A DNA stretch of 64,000 bases. Origin: Clostridiales bacterium (GTDB taxonomy: Bacteria > Bacillota > Clostridia > Oscillospirales > Acutalibacteraceae). Under the pieces are notes generated by a model. That model was not told the DNA's origin. It was given only the letters and a program-made list of their open reading frames with translations, and did no database searches. Location: positions 25,604-89,603 of the forward strand of contig DUNU01000022.1 of the NCBI GenBank assembly GCA_012839185.1, read 5' to 3'. The translations under genes were made by a program, and so were the position numbers. This document shows positions 1 through 35,673 of this stretch, one piece after another (within the stretch, counting starts at the first letter, position 1; the number at the start of each line of letters is the position of its first letter).

Positions 1-1470
1 GATATTTCTTACACTCCCTTTTTTGAATATACCTGCACCGACTGGGAAAGTCCACGTTATATAGAATACGCTGTTGCAAATGGTATTACGGGCGGTCCTT
101 ATGTCAACATTCCCGATTCCATGGGCGGTACTGTTAACTATCTTGGTCGTGTATGTCATACTCTTACCGAAAGCATTTGCAGCAGAGATACATATTTTGG
201 GACACATCCCGAGTATTTTGCATATCGTAACGGCAAGAGAGTTGACAAGCAGTTATGTCTTACAAACTCCGATGTTGTCGATTTGGTCAAAAATGAGGTT
301 CTTGAACTTTTAGCGACGGGACACAACCCCGATGCTTCTCTTCAAATTATTTCATTAACACAGGCGGATAATCAGGAATATTGTACCTGTGAAAACTGCG
401 TTGCCTTTGAAAAAGCACACGGAAACGTTCGCTCCGCCACGATGATAAATTTCGTAAATCAAGTTGCGGATGTTGTTAAAGAGGCGGGATATGACAATGT
501 TGTAATTGATACTTTTGCTTATCAATACACAAGAAAAGCTCCTACCGGAATAGTCCCCCGCGACAATGTTTGTGTTCGTTTATGCCCAATCGAATGTTGT
601 TTTGCTCATACGCTTGATGATAAAAACTGTGCTTCAAACGTTGCATTTATGAAAGACCTTGTTGATTGGAAAAACATTTGCAATCGTCTTTACATTTGGG
701 ATTATACAAACAACTTTTCTCATACTTGTACCGTATTTCCCAATTTTGGTGTCTTACAGCGTAATGTTCAAGTTTTTGTTGAAAACAATGTAAAGGGTGT
801 TTATGAATCGGGCAATTACTATATGTATGCCTGCGACAGTGAGTTTGGTGAACTTCGTGCATATCTTTTATCGAAACTCATGCAAAATCCCTATCTTGAT
901 TATGACAAGACAATGGACGAATTTTTGGCGGCTTATTACGGCAAAGGCTGGATGAATATTCGCAAGGCTATTGATATGTACACCGACAAGGCGGGAGACG
1001 TTCTCGGACATTTGAGAATTTCTTATTTGCCCAAAGACAGTTTGCAATTATCAAACAGACAAGTAAAAATTATTGACAGATATTGGGAAGCAGCTTACAA
1101 TGAAGCGGAAACCGATATGCACAGAGAGAACATTTATCGTAGTGAACTTTCTTGGAGATATTACAAAGCCGACACAGGCAAGGGAGAGTTTTCGTCGTTG
1201 AACTCTGCTCGTTTTGATGAAATGCAGAAACTCTATGATGACCTTATTACACACGGTGTTACTACGCTTAATGAACGCCACCTTCATGATATACTCGATT
1301 GTCCTGTTGCAAGATATGTAAAACCTAATCAGTGGTATCAGTTTGAAGAAGGCACGGCTGCTACTCAAGCTAAAATTACATGGGGACAAGCTCAAGAAAA
1401 TTCACCCTTAAATTCGATCAGGGATTTGTTATACAGGATAATGAATTGGATTTGGGGAATGTTTATCTGA
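1..1470 (+). CDS. DUF4838-like (GH20-like fold) protein, 5' end outside the window
   Basis: Frame 1 is open from base 1, with no stop before the listed ORF 121..1470. Motifs HPEYFAYRNGKR..QLCLTNSDV and YIWDYTNNF resemble the DUF4838 family as I recall it. Confidence 0.5.
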   Translation, partial: DISYTPFFEYTCTDWESPRYIEYAVANGITGGPYVNIPDSMGGTVNYLGRVCHTLTESICSRDTYFGTHPEYFAYRNGKRVDKQLCLTNSDVVDLVKNEVLELLATGHNPDASLQIISLTQADNQEYCTCENCVAFEKAHGNVRSATMINFVNQVADVVKEAGYDNVVIDTFAYQYTRKAPTGIVPRDNVCVRLCPIECCFAHTLDDKNCASNVAFMKDLVDWKNICNRLYIWDYTNNFSHTCTVFPNFGVLQRNVQVFVENNVKGVYESGNYYMYACDSEFGELRAYLLSKLMQNPYLDYDKTMDEFLAAYYGKGWMNIRKAIDMYTDKAGDVLGHLRISYLPKDSLQLSNRQVKIIDRYWEAAYNEAETDMHRENIYRSELSWRYYKADTGKGEFSSLNSARFDEMQKLYDDLITHGVTTLNERHLHDILDCPVARYVKPNQWYQFEEGTAATQAKITWGQAQENSPLNSIRDLLYRIMNWIWGMFI

Positions 1471-1522
1471 TATGAGGGAAATATTGCACGGGCTTAGTCG
1501 TCCGTGCAATACAAATGTGAGA

Positions 1523-2296
1523 ATGAAAATACAATCAAAAAATAACGACAAAATCAAACATATTTCAAAACTCGTACTTTCTTCGTCATACCGACGTGAG
1601 ATGGGTTTGTTTGTGCTTGAAGGAGCAAGACTTTGTGTCGATGCGGTAAGGTCGGATATTTCTCCCGATGAGTTTTATTATACTTATGAAGCAAAGGAAA
1701 AATATGCCGCAGAATTTGACGAAATAAGCGAAAAATGTGAGAATATCTATGAGATAGACAAAGACATTGCGGCGAAAATTTCTGATACGAAATCGCCGCA
1801 GGGTTTTTTCACCGTAAATAAAGCACTTGACAAATCTATATTATTTGATAAAATAAATAACAAAAGTAAACTGGTGGCATTGGACAATGTCCAAAATCCG
1901 GACAATTTGGGAGCAATAACAAGGACTGCCGAGGCTTTGGGCTATGACGGAATGCTTATTGGTTCCGGCTGTGATATTTATAATCCGAAGGCACTTCGTG
2001 CATCCATGGGTGCGTTTTTCAGATTGAACATTGCACGAGCAGAGAGTTTAAATGAACTTTTTGATTTGTGTCCCGACGTTGATATTATCGCAACTGTTCC
2101 TGATTCGGATGCTTTGAGTATTACCGATTATATTCCCGACAAGGGCTTTGCTGTTGTAATCGGGAATGAGGGCAACGGAATATCCGATGATGTCTTAAAG
2201 AGATGTAATGTAAAAACCACAATCAAGATGAAAGGCAGAGCCGAGTCATTAAATGCAGCCGCTGCCGCCGCCATTGTACTTTGGGAACTTTCATAG
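1523..2296 (+). CDS. TrmH/SpoU family RNA 2'-O-methyltransferase
   Basis: ORF 1472..2296 carries SpoU motifs NVQNPDNLGAITRTAEALG, VIGNEGNGIS and ESLNAAAAAAIVLWE. I placed the start at the internal ATG (MKIQSKNNDKIKHI), which fits family N-termini; 1472 remains possible. Confidence 0.85.
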   Translation: MKIQSKNNDKIKHISKLVLSSSYRREMGLFVLEGARLCVDAVRSDISPDEFYYTYEAKEKYAAEFDEISEKCENIYEIDKDIAAKISDTKSPQGFFTVNKALDKSILFDKINNKSKLVALDNVQNPDNLGAITRTAEALGYDGMLIGSGCDIYNPKALRASMGAFFRLNIARAESLNELFDLCPDVDIIATVPDSDALSITDYIPDKGFAVVIGNEGNGISDDVLKRCNVKTTIKMKGRAESLNAAAAAAIVLWELS

Positions 2297-2314
2297 GTTT
2301 AAGGGTGTGATATT

Positions 2315-3505
2315 TTGGTGCGAGCATCAAGTGAATATTGGGTATGGCTCTCAACAGCTTTGGGAGTTGGCTACAATGCCGATGAACTCATTCATTTTTA
2401 CGGCGATGCCAAAAATGTCTTTGATGCAGGCTACCACCAATGGATATTGTCGGGACTTGTGCGGAAAACCGCCGCGGAGAGAATGAAAAATTATTCTCTT
2501 GATGAGGCGAAAAAGACGGTTGCTCTGTGCGAAGAAAACGGATGGGAAATCGTTACTCCCGATAGTGAATATTATCCCTATTTACTTCATGAAATTCATG
2601 CAAAACCTCTTGTTTTATACGTAAACGGAGATGTGTCCGTTCTTAAACACCCTTTGCCTATCGCTTTTGTAGGAACTCGTGATGCATCCGCAAACGGAAT
2701 TAAAATTGCAGAAGAATATGCATATTCACTCGCAAAAGCCGGTGCTTTAATCGTAAGCGGCGGAGCATTGGGGATCGATTCTGCGGCACATATGGGTGCG
2801 TTGCAAGCAGTTGCCGATACGATTGCTTTTTTAGGATGCGGATTTTTGTCTGATTATCTTAAATCCAACAAAAATCTTCGGGACGCAATTTCAAGACACG
2901 GTGCCTGCGTGAGTGAGTTTCATCCGACGGCTCCTGCAAATCGGGGTACATTCCCGATAAGAAATCGTCTTATTGCGGGAATAAGCAGGGCAACGGTGGT
3001 TGTTGAAGCGGGTTTAAGAAGCGGTTCGCTTATTACCGCACGATATGCTATGGAAGAAAATCGTGATGTGTTTGCGTTTCCCGGAGAGGTTACGAGTTTC
3101 AATCATCTCGGAACAAACAAACTAATAGCTGACGGGGCATATTGCGTCATTTCTAAAGAGAGCATATTGAATGTCTATGCTCACGAGTATCCCGATTTGA
3201 TCAATCTTGATTCGTTGAATGATGAATATGACCCGACAATGAAGATTCCTCCTCCCGAAAAACCAAAAAAGGTTGAAGTCAGAGTTAAACCGAAAACACC
3301 CGAAAAAGAGCCGTTTGATACCTCATTATTGTCGGATGATAACAGTGTTCGTGTTTATGGTTTCTTGGCTGATACTCCGAAATCTGTTGATGAAATAGTG
3401 ATTGAATCGGGTATGGATGCTACCGATGTCTTGGTGGCACTGACCGATATTGAAATCTGCGGCGGTGCAAAAACGCTTGCGGGAAAGAGATATATAAAAG
3501 CATAA
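2315..3505 (+). CDS. dprA: DNA-processing protein DprA (Smf)
   Basis: Rossmann-like core motifs FVGTRDAS, SGGALGIDSAAHMGAL and FPIRNRLIAG. It sits in the conserved position upstream of topA. TTG/GTG start. Confidence 0.9.
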   Translation: MVRASSEYWVWLSTALGVGYNADELIHFYGDAKNVFDAGYHQWILSGLVRKTAAERMKNYSLDEAKKTVALCEENGWEIVTPDSEYYPYLLHEIHAKPLVLYVNGDVSVLKHPLPIAFVGTRDASANGIKIAEEYAYSLAKAGALIVSGGALGIDSAAHMGALQAVADTIAFLGCGFLSDYLKSNKNLRDAISRHGACVSEFHPTAPANRGTFPIRNRLIAGISRATVVVEAGLRSGSLITARYAMEENRDVFAFPGEVTSFNHLGTNKLIADGAYCVISKESILNVYAHEYPDLINLDSLNDEYDPTMKIPPPEKPKKVEVRVKPKTPEKEPFDTSLLSDDNSVRVYGFLADTPKSVDEIVIESGMDATDVLVALTDIEICGGAKTLAGKRYIKA

Positions 3506-10236: not shown

Positions 10237-10256
10237 AGGTAGGTAAGCCCCTACCT
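10237..10256. terminator. Bidirectional rho-independent terminator (folK on + / tRNA-Leu readthrough on -)
   Basis: AGGTAGG-taagcc-CCTACCT, a 7-bp stem. An A-run precedes it on + (AATAAAA), which reads as a T-run after the hairpin on the minus strand. Confidence 0.6.
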
Positions 10257-10267
10257 CTAATTTCTAT

Positions 10268-10290
10268 TGGTGCGGATAACAGGGCTTGAA
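10268..10290 (-). repeat. Orphan copy of the last 23 nt (T-loop to CCA) of tRNA-Leu
   Basis: tggtgcggataacagggcttgaa is identical to 10431..10453, the 3' end of the intact tRNA. The match breaks inside the T-loop. Confidence 0.9.
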
Positions 10291-10430
10291 AAGACGGCTT
10301 TGCCGCTTTTCAAATGTTTTATTTATAACGCCTATTTTCGCCCCTGTCGAAAATAGATGCGTAAAGGTTCAAGCCCTGCCGCGAAACATATTAACAAAAT
10401 AGGGATAGGTAAGTCCCTACCTCTATTTTT

Positions 10431-10515
10431 TGGTGCGGATAACAGGGCTTGAACCTGCACACCTCTCGGCACAAGATCCTAAATCTTGCGTGTCTGCCAA
10501 TTCCACCATATCCGC
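10431..10515 (-). tRNA. tRNA-Leu (anticodon UAG), CCA encoded
   Basis: I hand-folded the reverse complement GCGGATATGGTGGAATTGGCAGACACGCAAGATTTAGGATCTTGTGCCGAGAGGTGTGCAGGTTCAAGCCCTGTTATCCGCACCA. It gives a 7-bp acceptor stem, anticodon stem CAAGA/TCTTG with loop TT-TAG-GA, a long variable arm and T-loop TTCAAGC. Confidence 0.88.
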
Positions 10516-10655: not shown

Positions 10656-12518
10656 ATGGAACCCATTAAAGTAGATTTTTCAAAAAGTGGAAGCAAGGGC
10701 AGTAAGAGTGCCTATATTGTTCCCGACAAATCCGGCCTTAAAATTGTTTTAAGCATCATTTTAACAATCGTAACCGCAGCGGTTGCATATTATTTTATGC
10801 TTCCTGCACTTAACTTTAAGTCCTACGATTTTTACATGTATGTCGCAATCATTTTAGGAGCTTATGTTATTTGGAACGGCTTGTTTGCGAGGGTGCTTAC
10901 TCGTCCTGAATATGTTCCCTATGTCAAACGCAGGGCATTGGTGCCGATTATTATTTTAGTGATATTCGCTGTTATTTTCGGCATCGGCTATCTCGTATCT
11001 GCTCCTTTTTTCAGAGCCAAATCATATAGCCAAATTATTGAAGTTGAAGAGTATGATCCCGAATCCGAAGATTCAAATAATGCGATAAACAAGATTACAA
11101 ATATTGATAAGCTTTCCGATTTCAATAAGATTGCTCTTATTGACGCAAGTGCAGCGGAAAGGCTCGCCGACAAGACCTTGGGTGCTCTTGCTGAATATAA
11201 CCTCGAATCACAGTTTGAAGTTCTCAATTATTACTCAACTCAGATTAACTATCAGAACTCCCCCTATCGTGTATTTCCGCTCAGATACGGCGATGTTTTC
11301 AAATGGCTTAAAAATCGTACGGACGGTACGGCAGGTTATATCACCGTCAATATGAACACTCAGGAATCTGAATTTGTCAAGACCGAAGAGGGGATAAAAT
11401 ACACTCCGGCAGAACACTTTGACCGTCATTTAAAACGTGTTGTACGCTTTAAATATCCCACATATCTTATCGGTAATATTTCATTTGAAATTGATGAACA
11501 GGGCAATCCTTATTGGCTTGTTCAGCATCTTGACAAGCGTGTCGGATTATTCGGCGGTGATGATGTTGTAGGCATCATTCTTGTTGATGCTTGCACAGGT
11601 GAATGTGTGGAATATACCATTGATGAAGTACATGCAGGAGAAGCTAATGACGGTACTTTCCTTGAATGGGTTGACTCGGTTTATGACGGAGACCTTCTCA
11701 TTCAGCAGTACGACTATAAGTACAAATATTCCAATGGTTTCATTAACTTTTATATCGGTCAGGAAGGTGTTAAACTCACAACCGCAGGTTATGCTTATCT
11801 TACTGACGGCAATGACGTATATATGTACACAGGTGTTACATCTGCAAATACAGACGAATCCATTTTAGGCTTCGCTCTCGTAAATCAGCGTACAAAGGAA
11901 GCATATTTCTACAGCGTGTCCGGTGCAACTGAAGCTGCTGCTCAGTTATCTGCTCAGGGTATCGTTTCCGACAAGGGCTGGATTGCAACTTTCCCGCTTC
12001 TCATCAACTTAAGGGCAACTGACGGCGACTATGTACCGACATATTTCATGGCACTTAAAGACAATAATAACGTTATTAAATCCTATGCAATGGTCAACGT
12101 CGCTCAGTATTCGGATGCTGTTCGTTCTCCCAGTGACGACAACCCCGATCTGAAGGCTTGCTTGCAGGCATATACCAACAAACTTGCTTCAAGAAGCACC
12201 CCCGTTAATATTACTGTAAGCATGACGGGATCTCTTAACACTCCCGCAGAAAATGAAGATGATTTGGGTGACAAAGCGATTGTTACCGGTCCTGTTACAG
12301 ACATTAAAGCGGTTATAATTGCAGGCAATACATATTTCTATGTAACCATTGACAGCAAGGTATATCGTATAGCCGCAACTATCGACAATGCTCTTATTTT
12401 CGCAACGGTCGGAGATTTTATATCTCTTGAATATGTTGAGTCCGATGACGAGATTATTGAGGCAATCGTTGTTCCGCATCCCGAAAATACGGTTGAAGAG
12501 CCGGTAACCACGAATTAA
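10656..12518 (+). CDS. Membrane protein of unknown function (three N-terminal TM helices plus a roughly 500-aa extracytoplasmic domain)
   Basis: 620-aa ORF with SD TGGAG and upstream TTGTAT-17-TATAAT. Hydrophobic segments are LKIVLSIILTIVTAAVAYYF, YMYVAIILGAYVIWNGLF and PIIILVIFAVIFGIGYLV. I recognise no catalytic motif. Confidence 0.7.
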   Translation: MEPIKVDFSKSGSKGSKSAYIVPDKSGLKIVLSIILTIVTAAVAYYFMLPALNFKSYDFYMYVAIILGAYVIWNGLFARVLTRPEYVPYVKRRALVPIIILVIFAVIFGIGYLVSAPFFRAKSYSQIIEVEEYDPESEDSNNAINKITNIDKLSDFNKIALIDASAAERLADKTLGALAEYNLESQFEVLNYYSTQINYQNSPYRVFPLRYGDVFKWLKNRTDGTAGYITVNMNTQESEFVKTEEGIKYTPAEHFDRHLKRVVRFKYPTYLIGNISFEIDEQGNPYWLVQHLDKRVGLFGGDDVVGIILVDACTGECVEYTIDEVHAGEANDGTFLEWVDSVYDGDLLIQQYDYKYKYSNGFINFYIGQEGVKLTTAGYAYLTDGNDVYMYTGVTSANTDESILGFALVNQRTKEAYFYSVSGATEAAAQLSAQGIVSDKGWIATFPLLINLRATDGDYVPTYFMALKDNNNVIKSYAMVNVAQYSDAVRSPSDDNPDLKACLQAYTNKLASRSTPVNITVSMTGSLNTPAENEDDLGDKAIVTGPVTDIKAVIIAGNTYFYVTIDSKVYRIAATIDNALIFATVGDFISLEYVESDDEIIEAIVVPHPENTVEEPVTTN

Positions 12519-12560: not shown

Positions 12561-12609
12561 GTTTTAGTTGTGTTATGATAAAGTCACAAAAACGAAAGGA
12601 AGTAATATC

Positions 12610-13251
12610 ATGAAAACTAATTTAACAGAACTTGTATTTATTCTCGACAGAAGCGGCTCTATGAGCGGGCTTGAAAGCGACACCATCGGCGGCTTTAATT
12701 CTCTTATCGAAAAGCAAAAATCCGAAGACGGAGAATGCTTTGTAACCACCGTGCTTTTTGACCATGAAAATGAAATTGTTCATGACAGAATTGCTCTTTC
12801 CGAAATTTCTAAGATGACCGAAAAAGAGTATTACACCCGCGGTACGACTGCTCTGCTTGATGCCATGGGAACAACAATCAAGCACATCGAAAAAATTCAA
12901 AAGTATGCTCGCAAAGAAGACAGACCGCAAAAAACACTTTTTATTATCACCACCGACGGATATGAAAACGCAAGTCGGAAGTTTAGTTCAAAAGAAGTTA
13001 AAAAACTCGTCGAACAGAAAAAGGAAATCGGTTGGGAATTTCTGTTCTTGGGTGCAAATATTGATGCAGTTGAAACTGCTCATGATTTCGGTATAGCCGA
13101 AGATCGTGCCGTTACTTATCTTTCCGACAATATCGGTACCAAAACGATTTTTCAAAATCTTTCTTCCGCTGTTTCTTATTCTCGTGCCGGAAAGGATATT
13201 ACAAGAGAATGGAAGTCAGAGATTGAGGAAGACTATGAAAAACGCAAGTAG
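12610..13251 (+). CDS. von Willebrand factor A (vWA) domain protein, cytoplasmic
   Basis: MIDAS motif VFILDRSGSMSG, with downstream T (GTTALLDAMG) and D (IITTDGYEN) elements. The ATG at 12610 has SD GAAAGGAAG. The track ORF starts at TTG 12568. Confidence 0.8.
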   Translation: MKTNLTELVFILDRSGSMSGLESDTIGGFNSLIEKQKSEDGECFVTTVLFDHENEIVHDRIALSEISKMTEKEYYTRGTTALLDAMGTTIKHIEKIQKYARKEDRPQKTLFIITTDGYENASRKFSSKEVKKLVEQKKEIGWEFLFLGANIDAVETAHDFGIAEDRAVTYLSDNIGTKTIFQNLSSAVSYSRAGKDITREWKSEIEEDYEKRK

Positions 13252-13306
13252 TTTGATTTGCTTGTAAGTACAAAAAATAAAAAAGCAACTAAATTCTTAA
13301 AAAGTA

Positions 13307-13335
13307 TTGACAAAACAGAAAATACTTTTTACAAT
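13307..13335 (+). promoter_or_regulatory. Consensus-like sigma-A promoter upstream of the sigma-factor gene
   Basis: TTGACA-17 nt-TACAAT. Confidence 0.6.
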
Positions 13336-13341
13336 TACAGT

Positions 13342-13361
13342 GTATCAGGGAGTCCTGATAC
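13342..13361. promoter_or_regulatory. Perfect 8-4-8 palindrome at the predicted +1 (candidate operator)
   Basis: GTATCAGG-gagt-CCTGATAC starts 7 nt after the -10 hexamer. The flanking CAG/CTG extend the pairing. Confidence 0.4.
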
Positions 13362-13514
13362 GCTGTATTTGATTTGGAAAAACAATTCAAGTACAAGAGA
13401 AAGGAATTAAATAAAAATGAAAAAGAAAATATTATTGTCGAAATCAGTAAATTGATATATAAATAAATTACTGTTTATGGAAATGCAGGCATTCCGGGAG
13501 GGAATACGGGACAT

Positions 13515-14060
13515 ATGAATTTTGAAGAGAAAAGAAGAATAGAGAACGATTTATGGCAAGAACATGAGCCGTATATTCGCAAACTTTGTAAATATAAGTT
13601 AGAAAGCGTGCCTGATTGTATTGATGATTGCGTTCAGAATGTTTTTCTGGACTTATCAGAGGCTCTGAATCAAGGGAAAATAATTAAGTATCCGAAGGCT
13701 TGGCTGACTAAGGTTGCTAATAATGAGATTCGGGATATTTACAGCAAAGCGAAAAAAGATGCTGAAAAAATAATTTCTTTTGAATCTCAAAACTTCGATA
13801 ATGCAGATTTAGGAGTGGTATATGATGATCCGTTTTCTGTTGACGATGAGCAAATACTGATGTTAAAAGAAAAAGTACTCAATCGGCTCGATGAAAAAGA
13901 CCGTCAATTACTGAATGACAGATATGTTCTGAATAAAAGCATTGCAGAAATTGCCGAAGAGTATAACACAACTGAGAATAATATTTATCAAAAATTGTTC
14001 AGATTAAAGCAAAAAACGAAAATGATAATCGAAAAAGTCCTTAACGAAAAAAATTTATAA
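13515..14060 (+). CDS. ECF-type (sigma-70 family group 4) RNA polymerase sigma factor
   Basis: 181 aa. It has a region-2-like segment (DCVQNVFLDLSEAL..AWLTKVANNEIRDIY) and a region-4 HTH (LDEKDRQLLNDRYVLNKSIAEIAEEYNTTENNIYQKLFRLKQK). Confidence 0.85.
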   Translation: MNFEEKRRIENDLWQEHEPYIRKLCKYKLESVPDCIDDCVQNVFLDLSEALNQGKIIKYPKAWLTKVANNEIRDIYSKAKKDAEKIISFESQNFDNADLGVVYDDPFSVDDEQILMLKEKVLNRLDEKDRQLLNDRYVLNKSIAEIAEEYNTTENNIYQKLFRLKQKTKMIIEKVLNEKNL

Positions 14061-14064
14061 AAAA

Positions 14065-14100
14065 TTTTTGTAAGAAATGAGAATTATCAAGACTATATAT
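14065..14100 (+). promoter_or_regulatory. Promoter-like module copy 1: TTTTTGTAAGA-N11-TCAAGACTATATAT
   Basis: Repeated with the same 11-nt spacer length and a following G-rich SD at 15534..15569. Confidence 0.45.
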
Positions 14101-14118
14101 GTAGGGGGAGATAGAATT

Positions 14119-14946
14119 ATGATAAACGATAAAGATTTTTTACGCTTTATCAATGACAAGTCTCTTGACGGTTTAACAAAAGAAAGACTTAACACAATAA
14201 TTGATGAAGAGTTAAATAAGCCGGAAGAAGATATGGATACGGCACTTATAGAATATTGTTTAGATACAATAGAAACGCTTAACCAAAACGAACAGGGCGT
14301 TAAAGAAAAGAAAGGAAACGGTGATTCCAATGGTAGATTTATAAAATTCAGGTTAAAAAAGTTTATTGCAGTCGCTGCCGTTGTTGCAGTAATTCTTATA
14401 TGTACGGTTTCAGCATCTGCTGTCATTGACGGTATAAAACTATTTGGCGGTATCGTTGAAATTTATGAGAACGAAATTCGAATCAATTTTACTCAAAGAG
14501 ATGAACAAGCAGATGACTACCAACTTCTTAACACAGAACTTGCTAAAGAACTTGCTGACAAAGGTTTTGACAATGTTTTGTTGCCCGAAGCAATGTTTAG
14601 TGAGAACTTCGAAATCACAAAGAAAGCATATCAGGCTACTGAAGATAACGAAATAAAGCATGTGTCAATAGAGTTATTGATAAAAAAAGACATTGGCATC
14701 TTTATTAAAAAATATGCTGGCATCTTACATATGACCGAGTATAGCAGGGAAGAATATGTTTCTGATGGTCAATTTCCTTACGTAACAAGTGAAGTAAACA
14801 AAATAAAAGTCGGAAATACTACGGTGTATTATTTTGCACAAAACAAAAATACTACAATTACTTATAGAGACGGGTTGAGGATTTATTCTTTTCATATCCC
14901 GATAAGTTTAGATGAAGCATTGGAATTTGCGAAAACAATTAAATAG
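14119..14946 (+). CDS. Putative anti-sigma factor (single-pass membrane protein, DUF4367-like C-terminal domain)
   Basis: Lies immediately downstream of the sigma gene. It has a cytoplasmic N-terminal roughly 90 aa, TM segment FIAVAAVVAVILICTVSASAVI, and a C-terminus ending ..TITYRDGLRIYSFHIPISLDEALEFAKTIK, resembling DUF4367 as I recall it. The ATG at 14119 has SD GGGGGAG. Confidence 0.6.
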   Translation: MINDKDFLRFINDKSLDGLTKERLNTIIDEELNKPEEDMDTALIEYCLDTIETLNQNEQGVKEKKGNGDSNGRFIKFRLKKFIAVAAVVAVILICTVSASAVIDGIKLFGGIVEIYENEIRINFTQRDEQADDYQLLNTELAKELADKGFDNVLLPEAMFSENFEITKKAYQATEDNEIKHVSIELLIKKDIGIFIKKYAGILHMTEYSREEYVSDGQFPYVTSEVNKIKVGNTTVYYFAQNKNTTITYRDGLRIYSFHIPISLDEALEFAKTIK

Positions 14947-14957
14947 GAGTGTTTATA

Positions 14958-15470
14958 ATGAAAAAAATAATTTCGATATTTTTAATCGTACTATTGATGT
15001 TCAGTTTATTCTCAAATGTTGTTCTTGCTCAAGATTTTTATCGGACAAATTCATTTGTCAGCCAAGACGATATTATTGAAGAGGTGTATGGACTGTATAA
15101 TTCAAACAATTATAACGGTACCGGTTCAAGAGCAACAGGTCTGATAACAAAGAATCTTCTTAAATTGACCAAAACGACAAGCAGTTTGAAGATACAAGCA
15201 GAAACATTATGTTCAAGCGATGTTACAAAATGCGGTTTTACCTATGTAAAGTTACAAAGATTGATTAACGGAACATGGACTGATTATACAACTTATTGTT
15301 ATTACGATCAGTATTCTCAATCAAATGGCTTAGTATTTCTCAAAACGATTTATCCTCCTTCGGGTTATAGTTACCGTGTAATTTGCGAACATTATGCGGA
15401 AAAGCCGAAACTTATTTTCTTTAAGGAAACTCAAACGATTTACAATGCAACATCATCCTTGAGTTTCTGA
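14958..15470 (+). CDS. Secreted protein of unknown function
   Basis: Signal peptide MKKIISIFLIVLLMFSLFSNVVLAQD and SD AGGAG. The mature part has five Cys. No recognisable domain. Confidence 0.65.
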   Translation: MKKIISIFLIVLLMFSLFSNVVLAQDFYRTNSFVSQDDIIEEVYGLYNSNNYNGTGSRATGLITKNLLKLTKTTSSLKIQAETLCSSDVTKCGFTYVKLQRLINGTWTDYTTYCYYDQYSQSNGLVFLKTIYPPSGYSYRVICEHYAEKPKLIFFKETQTIYNATSSLSF

Positions 15471-15533
15471 TAAAGAATTAAAATTCTCGAATGAAAAAGT
15501 ATATTTTTATCAAATAAAAATTTTTTCAAAATA

Positions 15534-15569
15534 TTTTTGTAAGATTTCCGATTTTTCAAGACTATATAT
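15534..15569 (+). promoter_or_regulatory. Promoter-like module copy 2: TTTTTGTAAGA-N11-TCAAGACTATATAT
   Basis: Both conserved halves are identical to 14065..14100. It is followed by SD GAGGGAGG and a 9-codon orphan ORF (ATG 15593, MKGVSPMCN*), about 160 nt upstream of the ricin-metzincin gene. Confidence 0.45.
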
Positions 15570-15729
15570 ATGAGGGAGGAAAAAAATAAATTATGAAAGG
15601 CGTGAGTCCGATGTGCAATTAAAACTTTTCTCGAATTTTTCTGCTTTAATCGTAAGACTATTAAATTCAAAAATTAAGTTGTAGAAATTTAAGAGATTTT
15701 GCACACAATTAAGAAAGGAGGATGCAATA

Positions 15730-16692
15730 ATGAGAAAAGCTACAATTTGCGTAATTTTAGTTTTTATTCTTATATTTGTTTCGCCTACCTGTTTTGCATA
15801 CGGACCAACTGAGTTTGAACACGATCATCTGTATTATATACAAAACCAGAATTCAGGCAAGTATTTAACGGTGAATGGGAATAATATTGAGCAAAGATCG
15901 CTTTCTTACAACCAAAATCAGCGATTTTTTGTTCGCTTTATAAAGTCTTCAGATGGATTTGACTATTACTCTTTTATTCCCGACTGTTGCAAGGGGTATA
16001 AGATAGATGTAGAGAATGCTTGGGATATTAACGGTGCAAATATTGGTATATATGGTGATAATACTTACGTGCCTTCAGCACAAAACTTTAGGTTTATATT
16101 AAACAGCAATCTAAGATATCAAATTATGCCAGAAGTTAGCTCAACAAGAGTTTTTGACGTAGCGAATGCAAGCACTTTAGATGGAGCAAACATTGCCCTT
16201 TTTACACGCAGATCAATTAACGATAGTTTAGTAACAGCTCAACAATTTAAATTGTACACAGTTGAATTGAGTGTAATGTCTTATAATTGTGTTGATAGCT
16301 CAAAACATCTTGACTATAGTTGCGAAAGTATGTTTTCTGATTGTGCAGAATTTGCAAAAGATACTTGGAATGGATATAGAGCTGGTGTAGTCAGAAAGTA
16401 TATTCCTATTATAAGACCGAAAGATATAAGTATTATAGGCAAACAAACATTGCCTGCCGGTATTGCTGGAATAACTTACTTTGTAGAAAAGGAAATACAT
16501 ATTAGCATTGCTGTTTGGGATACGCTTACAGGTAATCAAAGAAATAATTTGGTGATTCATGAGATTGGTCATGCTTTAGGAATGGGGCATATTGATGATA
16601 CATCCAATGTTCTGTATTATGCAGTTAATTCAACAATTAGTTTAGAAAGTTCAAATCGGAGTTCTTATGATTTTGCTTATTCTCAATATTAA
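15730..16692 (+). CDS. Secreted ricin-type beta-trefoil lectin / metzincin zinc-metalloprotease fusion
   Basis: Signal peptide ..SPTCFA/YG. Three trefoil sub-repeats end in Q-x-F (NQRFF, QNFRF, QQFKL) with GKYLTV/GANIGIY/GANIALF cores. The C-terminal zinc site HEIGHALGMGH (HExxHxxGxxH) is at 16558..16590. Confidence 0.8.
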   Translation: MRKATICVILVFILIFVSPTCFAYGPTEFEHDHLYYIQNQNSGKYLTVNGNNIEQRSLSYNQNQRFFVRFIKSSDGFDYYSFIPDCCKGYKIDVENAWDINGANIGIYGDNTYVPSAQNFRFILNSNLRYQIMPEVSSTRVFDVANASTLDGANIALFTRRSINDSLVTAQQFKLYTVELSVMSYNCVDSSKHLDYSCESMFSDCAEFAKDTWNGYRAGVVRKYIPIIRPKDISIIGKQTLPAGIAGITYFVEKEIHISIAVWDTLTGNQRNNLVIHEIGHALGMGHIDDTSNVLYYAVNSTISLESSNRSSYDFAYSQY

Positions 16693-16708
16693 AATAGGAG
16701 TGATTAGT

Positions 16709-17365
16709 ATGAAAAAAGTTGGTATTGCCATTATTTCTGTGGTATTGATTTTAGGAATCACTTTGGGCAGTTTTGCTGTTTTAAGGCAAGTTAAAATTAA
16801 AAAATATTCAAAAGAAATATTCCCTATTCCCCAAAACATTGATCTGTTGGAAAAAGAAAAACTTGAAGCCTCATATCTTTTTGACACCGATGACAAGGAA
16901 TTGATGTCGGGAGCATCGCAGTATATAGTTATTGCATATCTCAATAAGATAACCGGAACGAGTTATAAAGATGTTGAAATAGTTAAAGGAGAAGCAAAGG
17001 GAACTCCGTTCACAAATTATACAATGAATATCGTAAAAAATATCAAGGGGAATCTTAAAATTGAAAATGATATTCCTGTCTTGCAGTATGGCGGAGTTTC
17101 CATAGATGGCAAGAAAATGGTTTTTCTTTATCCGTTGCTTGAAGAAAATACGCCTTATGTTCTTTACCTTGATGTCATTGATTCCGATCTTTGTCTGAAT
17201 AAAGCTTATGTCATTCCGGAAGTTGATAGTTTCGAAGAACTTAAGAATGTTTCAGAGACCGACACAAAAATTGATATTATTGAAGAGTGTATCCTTGCGT
17301 ATGAAAATGAGGATCCTAAGTATGCAACTCGAAAAAATGGAAAAAGCCCCTATGATTTAGGTTAA
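16709..17365 (+). CDS. Membrane-anchored or secreted protein of unknown function
   Basis: SD AGGAG and N-terminal hydrophobic segment VGIAIISVVLILGITLGSFAVL. The gene is 16 nt after the metalloprotease stop. Confidence 0.6.
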   Translation: MKKVGIAIISVVLILGITLGSFAVLRQVKIKKYSKEIFPIPQNIDLLEKEKLEASYLFDTDDKELMSGASQYIVIAYLNKITGTSYKDVEIVKGEAKGTPFTNYTMNIVKNIKGNLKIENDIPVLQYGGVSIDGKKMVFLYPLLEENTPYVLYLDVIDSDLCLNKAYVIPEVDSFEELKNVSETDTKIDIIEECILAYENEDPKYATRKNGKSPYDLG

Positions 17366-17435
17366 TGTTTAAGCTGATAGCATATAATGTAACTATGCTG
17401 ATGTAAACATAAATGACTATGGGTAGGTATTTATC

Positions 17436-18347
17436 ATGAAAATCTTGCGTAAAATTATTGGCATTGTACTACTGACAGTTTTCTTAATGACCGTGTTTTC
17501 ATTTTGGTGTTATGGTGTAAACAAAGATGAAAACTATGAACTGCTTTTGGAATATGGTTTCACATCAGATTATCTTGATAACTTAAGTGACGTGTTCATT
17601 GAAAAGATGGCTGATACAATCAGAGAAACGAGTGGGGAAAAACAGGCTAATGATTATTATTACTTGTTGTCCTGCGGCTATCCTAAAGCGTTTTTGGAAT
17701 TGCTGACTGACTCAACTCTGAAAAATATCGTTTCTTCAATAGGAGACAATGAAATTATATCTGTGACTTACACAAACAAAGATCCTGCTTTTAATATGAG
17801 TGACAATTCAAAAGTTGTAATCAAACGTGTTTCCGTCAAAATGAAAGATAAGAAAAGCGATAAAATTGTCGGTGAAACGGTATGCGTATATTGGGAATGG
17901 CTTGACAATAAGCCGTTGATAAGAGAAGAAGATTTTGTTGCAGTAAAATGGAACAGCGAGCTTTTCACATATAACCCGGATTCTTTCTATGCAGAAGATT
18001 ATTGGAAAGAAAACACAACGGATAAGTGGACGGTTGCCGATTCATATACCGTATTGACAAGAGCAACTCAGGAAGCAATCGGTCATTGGACAAAGCTTAA
18101 ATCATCAGGAAACATTGTCGGCGGTGCGATGATTTTCAGTTTGTTATCTAAATCTGAAATAGACAAAAAGACCGATTATACCAATAAGATAACGGTAGAG
18201 TATACTCATCAGTACAGATTGACGAAATTTATAATAATTGTCGTTATTCTTGTTGTAATATTATTAACTGCCGTAATAATTGTATTATCTAAAAAACACA
18301 GAAGAAAAATTCAAAAAACAACTGAAAGTCTTAAAAATAAGGACTGA
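17436..18347 (+). CDS. Exported protein of unknown function with a C-terminal TM anchor
   Basis: N-terminal signal IGIVLLTVFLMTVFSFWCYG. An internal duplicated segment reads LLEYGFTSDYLDNLSDVFIEKM / LLSCGYPKAFLELLTDSTLKNI. C-terminal TM FIIIVVILVVILLTAVIIVL followed by KKHRRK. Confidence 0.6.
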   Translation: MKILRKIIGIVLLTVFLMTVFSFWCYGVNKDENYELLLEYGFTSDYLDNLSDVFIEKMADTIRETSGEKQANDYYYLLSCGYPKAFLELLTDSTLKNIVSSIGDNEIISVTYTNKDPAFNMSDNSKVVIKRVSVKMKDKKSDKIVGETVCVYWEWLDNKPLIREEDFVAVKWNSELFTYNPDSFYAEDYWKENTTDKWTVADSYTVLTRATQEAIGHWTKLKSSGNIVGGAMIFSLLSKSEIDKKTDYTNKITVEYTHQYRLTKFIIIVVILVVILLTAVIIVLSKKHRRKIQKTTESLKNKD

Positions 18348-18452
18348 GTATATCAATAAAGGAAAATTAAAGCATTATTGATTTTTTGATAAAGAAGTAA
18401 ATTTTTCTCGAATATTTCCATTGTTAGATAAAAATAAAGGAATTAAATAAAA

Positions 18453-18884
18453 ATGAAAAAGATAATTGTTCTGTTGACCGTTGTTCTTTGTTTTGCAATG
18501 CTGTCTTCATGCACAACAGGTGAAGAAACGGATAGCTCAACGATGACAACGACGGAGATTAATGCTCCAACCGGACGCGATGACGGACTGCCGCAAAAAG
18601 CAATGATTTTTTATAACGACTGCCTTTATGAAGCCGATCTGTACTTTTTCATGCTTGAAGAAAACGGGGGATATGTTGAAGTTCCTGATGCAAATAAAAA
18701 AGAGGTCTATGAACAGGAACACATTTTGACACCCTGCGGGAAAATAGAGAGCGTAATTGATACTGTGCCGGACAAAAATTTTGTCGGCTACGGAGTAAAA
18801 GAAGGTACACCTATGTACACAGATGAACTTGGTAATCTCTTTATTGAAACAGACGGTATTTTACGGGCATTTGTACTATCTTAA
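18453..18884 (+). CDS. Lipoprotein of unknown function
   Basis: Lipobox LSSC after the signal MKKIIVLLTVVLCFAM. Confidence 0.65.
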   Translation: MKKIIVLLTVVLCFAMLSSCTTGEETDSSTMTTTEINAPTGRDDGLPQKAMIFYNDCLYEADLYFFMLEENGGYVEVPDANKKEVYEQEHILTPCGKIESVIDTVPDKNFVGYGVKEGTPMYTDELGNLFIETDGILRAFVLS

Positions 18885-18905
18885 TTTTGAATATGAGGCA
18901 TAAAC

Positions 18906-19442
18906 ATGAAAAACACAAAGAAAAAACGCAGAATACTAATGTTTCTGTCCGTGATTTTAGCAATTATTTTAATTTCATCTATTACCTTAAGTTTTTATTT
19001 CCTGAGACCATTAAGATATTCCAATGCTGAAATAATAGTTTATAACTTTGATTATCAACCGGCGTTTGACAGTAAGATTCGTCAATATAACGAGAATAGT
19101 CTTGTCAGCTTTAGGAATGAAAATTGCACATTTTCTTCGCGAGACATGAATGATTATTGCAAGGTCAATGTCAGCGTGGATGTATATAACAGAACAGGGA
19201 TAAATGCATTTGTTAATTATATTTATCCGATTACTGACAATGATTTTATTATTTTCGGAATTATTCCCCTTGCCACAATGCAAGCACCCGCAAATACCAT
19301 TTCGGAATGTTACAGTACATTCATCTGCTTAAGGAATGGTAAAACTGATGAAGAAATAATTAACGCAATGTCTGAAATGGATTACAAGATAGTCTTTGGT
19401 AACAGTGTTCTCTGGGAAAATAGTCAGACAATACATTTTTAA
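18906..19442 (+). CDS. Membrane-anchored protein of unknown function
   Basis: Basic N-terminus KKKRR followed by TM ILMFLSVILAIILISSITLSFYF. Confidence 0.55.
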   Translation: MKNTKKKRRILMFLSVILAIILISSITLSFYFLRPLRYSNAEIIVYNFDYQPAFDSKIRQYNENSLVSFRNENCTFSSRDMNDYCKVNVSVDVYNRTGINAFVNYIYPITDNDFIIFGIIPLATMQAPANTISECYSTFICLRNGKTDEEIINAMSEMDYKIVFGNSVLWENSQTIHF

Positions 19443-19542
19443 TTTATTGTAATTTAATTAAAAAGAATTTGTTGTTTATATTATAAAATAAGAAGGTTTT
19501 GAATATAGACGTTAATGCAAATATGAAGGCAGTTTTTCAGAA

Positions 19543-19575
19543 TAAAAAAGCATCTCTCGGTTTTCCCGTGAGATG
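19543..19575 (-). terminator. Rho-independent terminator of the XRE gene
   Basis: CATCTCTCGG-ttttc-CCGTGAGATG (one mismatch), followed on the minus strand by T6. Confidence 0.65.
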
Positions 19576-19606
19576 TATTTATTAGCTATCAAAATACTTT
19601 TCGATA

Positions 19607-19852
19607 TTATTCAGCACCGACAAGCCAAAGCATTGAAACGCCGAGAATTTCAGAAATGGCAAGAAGCTCTCTGTCACTTACACTTCGAAGCTGTCCTTCA
19701 ATTTTTGAAAGAGCAGATGAATTAAGGTCAATACCTTTGAGTTGAAGTTGCATAAGCAAGTCTTTTTGTTTCATGTTGAGAGCAGTGCGACGCTGTTCTA
19801 TCCGAATGCCGCAGATGTTTTTATCTCCGATTTCCTGTTTTCTTAAACGCAT
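19607..19852 (-). CDS. XRE-family helix-turn-helix transcriptional regulator
   Basis: HTH_3-like segment IRIEQRRTALNMKQKDLLMQLQ..SALSKIEG in an 81-aa protein. Confidence 0.75.
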   Translation of the reverse strand: MRLRKQEIGDKNICGIRIEQRRTALNMKQKDLLMQLQLKGIDLNSSALSKIEGQLRSVSDRELLAISEILGVSMLWLVGAE

Positions 19853-20008
19853 ATAAAAACTCCTGTTTTTTTTAATAATATCACATTTTTTTCTTTATAT
19901 CAATATAAAAAAATCAATTTTTATACAAATTCTTACTTTATATACAAAAATCGAACTTTTGTCTATTATCTTTTTTCTCTTTTGGCAATTAAGTTTTAGA
20001 AAATGTTC

Positions 20009-34393: not shown

Positions 34394-34978
34394 TTATTTA
34401 ATATCGGTTATCTTTTCCCCGTTAACATAAAGTCCGTCAAATTTAAAGTGATTCAGAAAACCTTTAATTACAACCGTAACATATGCAGGTGAACCGTCAA
34501 ACTCAAGTTTTGTGTCATTATCTAAATCGTAAATCCCGATTGTAAATCCGTCTTCATAAGAGAAATCAATATATTTTTTTGTAACATTTTTATTATCATC
34601 GGGAAACTCATTATAAAACTTTTTTGCGTCATTTATCGGGAGCTTCAGGCTAATTGTACCAACGTAATCACCAACGTCCATCCAACCGTCATAATCCCCG
34701 CAAATATCGATATTCAAATAATCGTACTTATTATTCATTTTAATATCCGAAGACAAAGTATAAAATTGAGCTTCCATAGATATAATATCTTCATTATATG
34801 CAGTCCAATTGTAAGCTATTTTATTGACTTTATATTCATATTTTATACCGAAATTTTCACAGCAGAAGTCTATAAGAGTGGGGTTTGCTATGATGATACC
34901 CGCAATAATAAGTTGGATAACAAGGGCCAAAATTATTTTTTTAAGCAATAATATCGCCTTCTTTCTCCGAAAGGTCAT
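34394..34978 (-). CDS. Membrane-anchored paralog P1 of an unassigned family
   Basis: Shares the N-terminal TM (LKKIILALVIQLIIAGIIIA) and the C-terminal block LEFDGSPAYVTVVIKGFL..FDGLYVNGEKI with P2 and P3. The start homologous to P2/P3 is a TTG at 34948; an upstream in-frame ATG lies at 34978. Confidence 0.7.
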   Translation of the reverse strand: MTFRRKKAILLLKKIILALVIQLIIAGIIIANPTLIDFCCENFGIKYEYKVNKIAYNWTAYNEDIISMEAQFYTLSSDIKMNNKYDYLNIDICGDYDGWMDVGDYVGTISLKLPINDAKKFYNEFPDDNKNVTKKYIDFSYEDGFTIGIYDLDNDTKLEFDGSPAYVTVVIKGFLNHFKFDGLYVNGEKITDIK

Positions 34979-35025
34979 TGTTAATCTTTTTATAACGTGT
35001 TTGCCTATTGAATATTGTTAATATA

Positions 35026-35583
35026 TTATTTGTGTTTGATCTGGGTGATTTTTTCTCCGTCAACATAAAGTCCGTCAAATTTAAGGTGATCCAGAAAACC
35101 TTGAATTACAACCGTCACATATGCAGGTGAGCCGTCAAACTCAAGAATGGAATCGGAATTTGAATCGTCAATAGAAATTGTAAAACGGTTAGTATAATAA
35201 GAGTAATTTATATGCTCTTTTCTGATATTCGGGTTGTTGTCGGGAAACTGCTCGTAGAACTTCTCCGCATCATCAATCGGTATAGTAAGGTAAAGTTCGC
35301 CGAGATTATCGTTAATGCTTATATAGTCATCATAGTTATTGTTGATACTGGCACCGGATTCGTACCACCGTGTAAGTATTATTAAATCTGAAGCATCGAA
35401 TTCAACATTAAGTTTTATTATACTATTGTTATATAATTTCCAACTGTAAACAATGTTTTTTACTTTACATTCATATATAGTACCACAATTCTCATGGTAA
35501 TAATCACCAAGTGTGGGACTTGCGATGATAATTCCGGCAATAACGAGTTGGATTACAAGAGCGACAATTATTTTTTTAAGCAT
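35026..35583 (-). CDS. Membrane-anchored paralog P2 of an unassigned family
   Basis: ATG at 35583 is preceded by SD GAAGGTG. N-terminus MLKKIIVALVIQLVIAGIIIASPT, C-terminal block LEFDGSPAYVTVVIQGFLDHLKFDGLYVDGEKITQIK. Confidence 0.75.
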   Translation of the reverse strand: MLKKIIVALVIQLVIAGIIIASPTLGDYYHENCGTIYECKVKNIVYSWKLYNNSIIKLNVEFDASDLIILTRWYESGASINNNYDDYISINDNLGELYLTIPIDDAEKFYEQFPDNNPNIRKEHINYSYYTNRFTISIDDSNSDSILEFDGSPAYVTVVIQGFLDHLKFDGLYVDGEKITQIKHK

Positions 35584-35673
35584 TGTATTCACCTTCTTTT
35601 TACTCTGTTCCCATAGGTGATTTCATTTTAATGAGTTTGTTTGTTGAGCTTTCTTTAAGCTGTTATTCAGTTT

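Follow-up and report, generated by a model that had tools for sequence, protein, structure and literature searches.

What kind of unit does an AT-rich block in the genome of a Clostridiales bacterium (Acutalibacteraceae) encode? The block occupies 13252-19606 of the 64,000-nucleotide stretch of contig DUNU01000022.1 analysed here (the window) and holds eight co-directional genes on the plus strand (Table 1), which encode a sigma factor of the extracytoplasmic function (ECF) type, an anti-sigma-like protein and six exported proteins designated g3 to g8. A first-pass annotation of the same DNA saw in it a self-contained set of partner proteins gated by its own sigma/anti-sigma switch and acquired horizontally. 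Our analysis favours another division of the block. With a probability of roughly 60%, it is an ECF sigma/anti-sigma signalling cassette with a conserved third component, g3, joined to lineage-specific exported proteins, g4 to g8, which are under its probable control. The conserved unit is the trio of sigma, anti-sigma and g3, not the whole block.

The conserved trio and its probable promoter motif

A g3-profile scan of one genome per GTDB species gave 40 loci, labelled mostly as Acutalibacteraceae, Oscillospiraceae, Ruminococcaceae or 'Clostridia' metagenome-assembled genomes, many of them from ruminant or other animal guts. Homologues of the sigma and anti-sigma-like proteins are encoded immediately upstream of g3, with the order kept, in 37 of the 40 loci, and their identities to the window proteins are 27-72% and 26-55%, respectively. 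The spacing within the trio is as in the window in most loci, while in a divergent subgroup (L047, L048, L052-L054) g3 is displaced downstream by about 1.5 kb. Four metagenome loci (L010, L013, L014 and L015) keep the order and spacing of the window too, and their flanking genes differ each time. The genes g4-g8 almost never accompany the trio: among the 40 loci only L019 and L020 carry weak homologues of g4 and g5 (26-28% identity), about 5 kb downstream, and outside these 40 the metagenome locus L010 has two g6 homologues directly after g3. Since the cargo differs between genomes, g4-g8 are not a co-evolved machine, and the self-contained unit proposed in the first-pass annotation shrinks, on the neighbourhood map, to the three co-conserved genes.

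The second line of evidence comes from duplications inside the block. The internal promoter and ribosome-binding site (RBS) duplications reported in the first-pass annotation are real and comprise two modules, D1 (14047-14119 versus 15516-15588, 73 nt, 74% identity) and D2 (13395-13441 versus 18431-18477, 47 nt, 83% identity). D1 proved to be a conserved bipartite motif, with the consensus T-rich-TGTAAgA-N(about 15)-AGACTATAT over 50 distinct sites. These sites are of three kinds. One occupies the 57-90 nt that separate the sigma gene from the anti-sigma gene and stops a few bases short of the anti-sigma RBS; a second, seen in about 22 loci, follows g3 at a distance of 130-210 nt; and in many loci further copies lie beyond it, for a maximum of four per locus. 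With a loose regular expression, 87 matches were obtained on the gene strand and 11, mostly poor, on the opposite strand. The exact form TGTAAG-N16-GACTATA is confined to the gene strand, with one to four occurrences in each matching trio locus and none in 79 pncB-anchored control loci (L057-L135, ~1.1 Mb of related Clostridia DNA). Within the window, TTGTAAG-N16-GACTATAT is matched with two or fewer mismatches at two places only, 14068 (P1) and 15537 (P2), against 0.13 expected by chance. Among the first open reading frames (ORFs) behind downstream motif copies, 20 of the 26 genuine ones scored a signal or anchor N-terminus, and a 21st, in L046, has one by eye after a downstream start codon. 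Divergent subfamilies carry the -35 variants TGTAAT, TGTAAC and TGTCAC, and in the most divergent of them (L047, L048, L053) it is the sigma gene that the motif precedes.

In ECF target promoters, about 16-17 nt separate an AAC-type -35 element from a CGT-type -10 element, and the promoter type of Bacillus sigma-X is TGTAAC-N17-CGAC. The 16-nt spacing of the motif fits ECF promoters, and its GTAA(G/C) and GAC elements resemble the sigma-X type. A reading of the motif as a housekeeping promoter was rejected: a sigma-70 scan did not flag the sites, and the spacing from TTGTAA to TATATA would be 20 nt. The motif is probably the promoter type that this sigma factor itself recognises. The gating of the block by its own sigma factor, claimed in the first-pass annotation, thus gains support, at the level of sequence, from an ECF-like motif that is conserved before the anti-sigma gene and present again before g4.

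Table 1. Features of the AT-rich block and its borders (window coordinates)
Feature	Position	Strand	Description
Candidate housekeeping-type promoter of the sigma gene	13307-13335	+	TTGACA-17-TACAAT, 11/12 matches
Strong hairpin	13336-13367	+	14 pairs, followed by a T-rich tract
Relic gene head	13395-13455	+	RBS and 12-codon ORF MKKKILLSKSVN* (13417-13455)
sigma	13515-14060	+	ECF-type (group 4) sigma-70 family, 181 aa, regions 2 and 4 only
P1	14068-14098	+	predicted cognate promoter of the ECF type, TTGTAAG-N16-GACTATAT, immediately before the anti-sigma RBS
anti-sigma-like protein	14119-14946	+	275 aa, single-pass
g3	14958-15470	+	170 aa, secreted; signal peptide, disordered linker, immunoglobulin (Ig)-like beta-sandwich
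P2	15537-15567	+	second motif copy, followed by RBS-like GAGGGAGG, a 9-codon ORF (15593-15622) and a leader to the g4 start at 15730
g4	15730-16692	+	secreted; predicted ricin-type beta-trefoil lectin with a short matrixin-like metalloprotease domain
g5	16709-17365	+	N-terminally anchored, 218 aa
g6	17436-18347	+	type I membrane protein: signal peptide, C-terminal transmembrane segment, basic tail
g7	18453-18884	+	143-aa lipoprotein, lipobox LSSC, no family
g8	18906-19442	+	N-terminally anchored, 178 aa, no family
Hairpin between g8 and XRE	19550-19576	.	canonical terminator on the minus strand, where TTTTTTATT follows; strong stem on the plus strand
XRE gene	19607-19852	-	convergent to the block genes

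Components of the proposed regulatory unit

The sigma factor reaches the Pfam cut-offs for Sigma70_r2 (25.9 bits, cut-off 24) and Sigma70_r4_2 (35.1 bits, cut-off 25.7), gives no region 3 match, and has the generic ECF model TIGR02937 as its top NCBIfam match (75.3 bits versus a cut-off of 42.9). No toxin-regulator family is found among the 25 NCBIfam matches listed of 43, and a sequence search of solved structures with the sigma factor returned no match. As in the window, a housekeeping-type promoter, often TGnTATAAT, and not an ECF-type motif precedes the sigma gene in most related loci. In L026-L032 the housekeeping-type promoter is joined by a second, ECF-like element, CGTAAC-N15-CGTCATAT, and given this element the sigma factor may be autoregulated in some lineages too. 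Downstream of the window promoter, the hairpin at 13336-13367 (folding z of -5.0 for 13336-13480) is probably the terminator of the upstream operon, which encodes a 620-aa protein and a von Willebrand factor A (VWA) protein; the start site predicted for the promoter would lie within the 5' arm of this hairpin. The relic head beyond it copies the RBS and start of the lipoprotein gene g7 and corresponds to module D2. In one public annotation a ninth gene is placed here, a 50-aa ORF at 13258-13410 that spans the promoter and the hairpin and is unlikely to be genuine; nine co-directional genes had been claimed for the block in the first-pass annotation, where eight are found and its own list sums to eight.

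The anti-sigma-like protein has a cytoplasmic N-terminus of ~80 aa with conserved residues E31, K34, D40 and C47, a K/R-rich stretch, one transmembrane (TM) segment (~82-101) and an ectodomain of ~170 aa. Its matches to DUF4179 (17.4 bits, cut-off 30.1) and DUF4367 (19.4 bits, cut-off 22.1) are below the Pfam gathering thresholds. Among 17 homologues, DUF4367 is matched at E <= 0.01 in 10 (best 6e-5) and DUF4179 in four. The TM segment ends in A99-S-A101|V, and in 17 of 17 homologues the alanine at -1 (Ala101) is invariant and the residue at -3 is small (A, V or G), a pattern that fits a predicted signal-peptidase site at the outer end of the membrane. In RsiV, the DUF4179 region is a module of TM segment and juxtamembrane part that carries the site-1 cleaved by signal peptidase, with amphipathic helices that mask the site until ligand binds (PMC6066255). 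Anti-sigma factors with DUF4179 are nearly confined to ECF systems of Firmicutes, for which the groups have been listed (PMC7826278).

The third component, g3, is the best conserved of the trio (column identity averages 61% across 32 diverse members) and matches no family in Pfam or NCBIfam. Its relatives form more than 134 clusters at 90% identity and, in a profile search, 273 representative clusters at 50% identity. The AlphaFold model (mean predicted local distance difference test, pLDDT, 83) shows an Ig-like sandwich of eight strands, preceded by a cleavable signal peptide and ~35 disordered residues, and three cysteines and a C-E-H-Y motif are conserved. Foldseek searches against the PDB gave weak generic matches to NEAT, arrestin and ester-bond adhesin/Ig structures (E of 4e-3 or worse, TM-score <=0.45) and no family. 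The g3 domain is also found at the C-terminus of secreted proteins of 322-628 aa (P0161-P0191), behind a signal peptide, repeats and, directly before the domain, a dockerin-like motif, a duplicated GDVNxDGxV of the calcium-binding type identified by eye. Its presence in these longer secreted proteins marks the domain as a portable extracellular module, and the fusions to dockerin suggest a link to cellulosome-type surface assemblies. Strict linkage to, and co-transcription with, the anti-sigma gene are the basis on which g3 is possibly a co-sensor, by analogy with RseB.

We infer the following mechanism, in which the placement and the conservation of the motif are the observed elements and every other step is conditional. 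The housekeeping-type promoter would transcribe the sigma gene and read through into the anti-sigma gene, because there is no room for a terminator before it. The cytoplasmic N-terminus of the anti-sigma protein would hold sigma at the membrane until an extracytoplasmic cue is sensed by the DUF4367-like ectodomain, possibly jointly with secreted g3. The cue would expose the conserved A-x-A site, and a cut by signal peptidase followed by intramembrane proteolysis, as for RsiV and sigma-V, would free sigma. RNA polymerase with this sigma factor would then start at the bipartite motif: from P1 it would raise anti-sigma and g3, giving negative feedback and not the usual positive autoregulation, and from P2 it would transcribe g4-g8 as one unit to the hairpin at 19550. 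The output would consist of the lectin-metalloprotease g4, the membrane-anchored, sensor-like g5, the surface beta-sandwich protein g6, the lipoprotein g7 and the anchored g8.

Exported genes, composition and borders of the block

Sigma and g4 are the only ones of the eight block proteins to reach curated Pfam or NCBIfam thresholds, and the other six are hypothetical proteins in the public annotation. The gene types listed in the first-pass annotation (sigma, single-pass anti-sigma-like protein, exported proteins) agree with the ORF map, and its statement that six proteins have no assignable family held in Pfam, NCBIfam and PHROGs and, for g3 and g6, in Foldseek searches. For g4, the lectin part is matched by RicinB_lectin_2 (51.8 bits, cut-off 25.6) and by ThreeFoil (E of 4e-7); the protease part has a complete zinc motif, HEIGHALGMGH, a Peptidase_M10 match of 25.1 bits (cut-off 24) over 33 residues and a match to MMP-12 (E of 7e-3). 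The g4 relative in L019 has NIM at the position of the Met-turn, and a g4-like/g5-like pair stands behind a motif copy in L019/L020.

The ectodomain of g5 is 42% identical to that of P0155, a 276-aa protein in anti-sigma position whose start is overlapped by the stop of another ECF sigma gene (L136 7456-8831). P0155 has ~57 additional N-terminal cytoplasmic residues that g5 lacks, implying that g5 is an orphan sensor domain of the anti-sigma type; it looks like such a sensor after loss of the cytoplasmic part. Three homologues of g5 and 33 homologous clusters of g6 were found among 5.8 billion clusters. In the g6 model (pLDDT 82), two helical repeats precede a jelly-roll beta-sandwich, which is followed by a TM segment and a basic tail, and Foldseek returned generic jelly-roll, carbohydrate-binding module (CBM), lectin, adhesin and phage-tail matches with TM-scores <=0.43 and no family. 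The g6 family has 15 invariant columns across 26 sequences, and its members adjoin regulators: those in L010 are part of a trio operon, that in L011 neighbours a divergent sigma/DUF4367 pair and that in L009 overlaps an XRE gene. For g7 and g8 no relatives were detectable in the families or loci searched, and no paralogue of any block protein was found within the window by blastp or tblastn.

Genes g4-g8 would form one P2-driven transcript ending at 19550. A scan found no plus-strand terminator between g4 and 19550, and the g5-g6 gap (70 nt, z of 0.05) and the g6-g7 gap (105 nt, z of -1.3) fold no better than shuffled sequence. On the plus strand the hairpin at 19550-19576 is the sole strong stem after g8 and the first one met. 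The relic heads, that is, the 12-codon ORF at 13417 copying the g7 start and the 9-codon ORF after P2, point to assembly by recombination at shared promoter/RBS heads. Other repeats are present in the intergenic DNA of the block: TTCTCGAAT occurs three times (15484, 15626 and 18403), and the g3-g4 and g6-g7 spacers share longer similar stretches (15454-15488 with 18373-18407; 15622-15641 with 18399-18418). A sequence that resembles TTCTCGAAT, TTCTCGAA, precedes sigma genes in L026-L030.

Genes g4-g8 are also present, free of internal stop codons, in a second strain (L056, 97.2% identity). One end of its 257-kb contig falls exactly at the second promoter copy, corresponding to window position 15537 between the trio and g4; either a break in the assembly at the repeat or heterogeneity of the strain at the junction could explain this. 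The 90% clusters of sigma, anti-sigma and g3 each include a sequence recorded from the LSQX01 assembly, the same as that of the second strain. A seemingly different genomic context in L008 was discarded as a gene-calling difference, the DNA being identical. Between the two strains dS is 0.01-0.07 for g4-g8 and 0.04-0.15 for most flanking genes, and the non-synonymous share in g4-g8 is above that of the flanks (Fisher p 7e-9; small substitution counts). This pattern fits more recent shared ancestry combined with weaker or diversifying selection.

In other genomes the trio and its motif are followed by cargo of other kinds. L013, L021, L022, L025 (with CBM96) and L039 encode RHS-repeat proteins of 467-2045 aa, with a small ORF behind each and RHS_repeat matches of 2e-41 to 1e-7. 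Other cargoes include a radical-SAM enzyme with an ATP-binding cassette (ABC) exporter (L019), PG_binding_1 with an Rv2525c-like, glycoside-hydrolase-like protein that is muramidase-like (L026), an LCAT/PGAP1-type lipase (L050) and many small signal-peptide proteins. The block of the window has no RHS match in Pfam. The shared theme of the cargo is secreted hydrolases and toxin-like proteins, and because of this theme an outward role in antagonism or degradation is favoured over housekeeping envelope stress.

The block has 32.4% GC compared with 38.9% elsewhere in the window; it is the lowest stretch of its length in the 64 kb, and 0.5% of windows of equal size reach so low a value. GC per kb is 31-34% across 13001-20000 and 38-44% in the flanks, and third-position GC (GC3) is 0.305 in the eight genes versus 0.354 in 53 other genes of the window (Mann-Whitney p 4e-4). 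The AT-richness claimed in the first-pass annotation is therefore confirmed by the windowed GC check. In 22 of 23 other genomes the GC of the trio falls below that of the DNA flanking it upstream, by a mean of 7 points (Wilcoxon p 2e-6), indicating that AT-richness is a trait of the cassette family wherever it is located; repeated transfer or an inherent property of such genes could account for it. No integrase, transposase or phage match was found in the eight proteins with Pfam, NCBIfam, PHROGs or PADLOC, as had been stated in the first-pass annotation. PHROGs gave generic sigma and helix-turn-helix (HTH) matches in the block and nothing else, and PADLOC found no defence system apart from weak HTH matches for XRE. 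A search for flanking direct or att repeats around the block found none, and a phage origin was rejected, as g3 and g8 have no relatives in IMG/VR contigs. Horizontal acquisition of the block, proposed in the first-pass annotation, is plausible: the composition is atypical, but neither mobility genes nor att repeats are present, and the trio shows the same GC dip in 22 of 23 other genomes.

The XRE gene, taken in the first-pass annotation as the end of the island, was rejected as a member of it. The order XRE-pncB(-pyk) is kept in two relatives that lack the block genes, L058 (identities to the window of 73% for pncB, 77% for pyk and 59% for XRE) and L076, and XRE is therefore assigned to the pncB backbone. 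Upstream of XRE, L058 carries an ABC-transporter pair where synteny is broken, so that this nearest relative found gives no clean empty site. On the other side, the VWA protein (12568-13251; phrog_7371 match with E of 5.5e-58) directly upstream of the block and the neighbouring 620-aa protein (10656-12518; no Pfam match) have normal GC. A tRNA-Leu gene (10431-10515, minus strand), the only Rfam match over the whole window, in which no riboswitch or leader family was detected, lies 2.7 kb from the block with two normal-GC genes in between. A direct repeat of ~50 nt (10240-10290 and 10406-10453, 90% identity), the second copy of which overlaps the tRNA-Leu, lies at the same distance and may be an old integration-site remnant. 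Elsewhere in the window there is a second AT-rich block (34394-37708, minus strand, GC 0.32-0.375), encoding a 492-aa membrane regulator with HTH_3 and DUF2157 and then three paralogous, family-less, N-anchored proteins of ~190 aa; L009 has this arrangement too (genes at 214-3040 of that locus), a few kb away from its g6 homologue.

Competing explanations and relation to known systems

Several points weigh against a cassette with dependent cargo as set out above. The assignment of the anti-sigma protein is drawn from sub-threshold domain matches, position and topology; the zinc-binding HxxxCxxC anti-sigma motif was not found in the protein, and a profile search of solved structures with its family gave nothing. 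The link between sigma and motif is drawn from position, orientation and conservation, and the -35 (GTAAG) and -10 (GACTAT) elements are similar, not identical, to the AAC/CGT pattern of ECF promoters. A fusion of g3 to an anti-sigma protein, which would have served as a Rosetta stone, was sought among the profile-search proteins and not found, the g3 domain being fused to dockerin-bearing proteins instead. That one promoter serves five genes, across gaps of 70 and 105 nt, is assumed. In g4 the methionine of the Met-turn is replaced by leucine (NVLYY versus AVMFP in MMP-12), with no methionine after the motif, and dN/dS in g4-g8 is 0.18-0.77, higher than in the flanks (few substitutions). The antagonism reading is extrapolated from other genomes, and no recognised toxin or immunity family is found in g4-g8.

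The function of the cassette admits several answers. The preferred one, and the weakest step of the argument, is that it turns on interchangeable secreted factors of 'attack or degradation', directed against competitors or glycosylated substrates. A more elaborate form of this proposal makes the trio a surface-signalling module of gut and rumen Oscillospirales, in which g3 as co-sensor and the DUF4367 anti-sigma protein would detect a competitor or polymer, the portable promoter would stand before swappable 'weapon' cassettes (RHS toxins, lytic enzymes, clusters for ribosomally synthesized and post-translationally modified peptides, lectin-proteases), and the promoter/RBS heads would be recombination handles by which cargo is swapped between strains; we regard it as tentative, with the odds against it. 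A classical envelope-stress regulon, in which damage to the cell's own envelope is sensed and g3-g8 are maintenance or protective proteins, as for sigma-V, sigma-W and sigma-M, is rather unlikely. The DUF4179-type architecture of the anti-sigma protein, with its AXA site as in RsiV (PMC6066255), would suit such a regulon, most products are membrane-anchored or lipoproteins, and the muramidase-like protein and ABC transporters found in other genomes might act in cell-wall turnover or resistance. Against this, stress-protection genes do not typically include a lectin-protease, a lipase or RHS-repeat proteins as long as 2045 aa, and stress regulons tend to be conserved, unlike this cargo, which is hypervariable from species to species.

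Two further explanations concern g4-g8 themselves. That all eight genes constitute one horizontally acquired machine which places a glycan-targeted protease on the cell surface is improbable. Co-direction, short gaps, a single downstream promoter copy and atypical composition speak for it, g4-g8 are kept as a block in the second strain, and the g4-like/g5-like pair recurs in L019/L020. Yet these genes do not travel with the trio beyond those weak g4/g5 homologues and g6 in L010, homologues of g5 and g6 are scarce among the clusters searched, the relic heads in D1 and D2 point to piecemeal assembly, and neither mobility genes nor att repeats are present. Conversely, g4-g8 might be leftover fragments of earlier cassettes beside a functional trio, with AT-richness reflecting weak selection. 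This decaying mosaic would account for the relic heads with their 9- and 12-codon ORFs, for the resemblance of g5 to an anti-sigma protein minus its cytoplasmic domain, for the altered Met-turn of g4 and for the raised dN/dS, but the five ORFs are intact in two strains ~3% apart, none of the genes has a dN/dS as high as 1, g4 retains a complete zinc motif and the g6 family keeps its invariant columns, and we consider it very improbable.

The RpoE-RseA-RseB system of Escherichia coli has the same order of sigma factor, membrane anti-sigma factor and exported protein. In E. coli, exported RseB binds the RseA ectodomain and tunes its proteolysis, and the system offers the best analogy for a regulatory g3. 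There is, however, no relation in sequence or fold, RseB being LolA-like and g3 Ig-like, and the LolA-like DUF4367 similarity resides here in the anti-sigma protein itself.

Closer in architecture is sigma-V/RsiV of Bacillus subtilis, of group ECF30 (PMC6066255, PMC7826278), which shares with the cassette a group 4 sigma factor, an adjacent single-pass anti-sigma protein and a range within Firmicutes, as well as the weak DUF4179 match over the TM and juxtamembrane region and a small-x-Ala sequence at the outer TM end, where the site-1 cut of RsiV occurs. By contrast, the ectodomain here is DUF4367-like and not the lysozyme-binding domain of RsiV, on domain matches that are below Pfam thresholds; a conserved secreted g3 and a predicted regulon of variable secreted proteins are present; and the cognate-type promoter is found behind the sigma gene, ahead of the anti-sigma gene, and not in front of both. 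In toxigenic clostridia, sigma factors of the TcdR/UviA type (PMC10223161) are likewise small, dedicated members of the sigma-70 family in AT-rich loci, which switch on secreted toxin or bacteriocin genes from a promoter type of their own, and the TcdR locus also encodes a membrane-associated negative regulator, TcdC (PMC10223161). The sigma factor here differs in matching the generic ECF model TIGR02937 and in having a canonical adjacent anti-sigma gene, the two types being set apart by family-model matches only. In cellulolytic clostridia, the ectodomain of RsgI senses extracellular polymer and turns on genes for secreted enzymes through sigma-I (PMC6582324, PMC7826278). Multiple sigma/anti-sigma pairs occur in related Clostridia, and the g3 domain is also fused to dockerin modules, but sigma-I has a sigma-I-C domain and RsgI another N-terminal domain, whereas region 4 is canonical here.

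The type of regulator, a Firmicutes ECF sigma factor with a single-pass anti-sigma protein of the DUF4179 type, is therefore known (PMC7826278, PMC6066255), and the remark in the first-pass annotation that no such system had been described is overstated for this part. What appear to be undescribed in the annotation and literature searched are the strictly linked g3 family, the sigma-type promoter placed after the sigma gene and its reuse before hypervariable secreted cargo. For the window alone the consequence is modest, as five of the six unknown proteins are still of no assigned function. If the interpretation is true, the trio would be an uncharacterised ECF regulatory cassette of abundant and little-studied gut and rumen Clostridia, present in at least 40 GTDB species, and the g3 family, with its 273 representative clusters and no Pfam entry, would acquire a concrete, testable role. 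The promoter signature would read out the regulon of the cassette in any genome and would flag secreted proteins that defy annotation, such as RHS toxins and the lectin-protease, as conditionally expressed. The wiring itself would be unusual, as a sigma-dependent promoter would drive the anti-sigma gene but not the sigma gene, from which a self-limiting pulse of expression is predicted.

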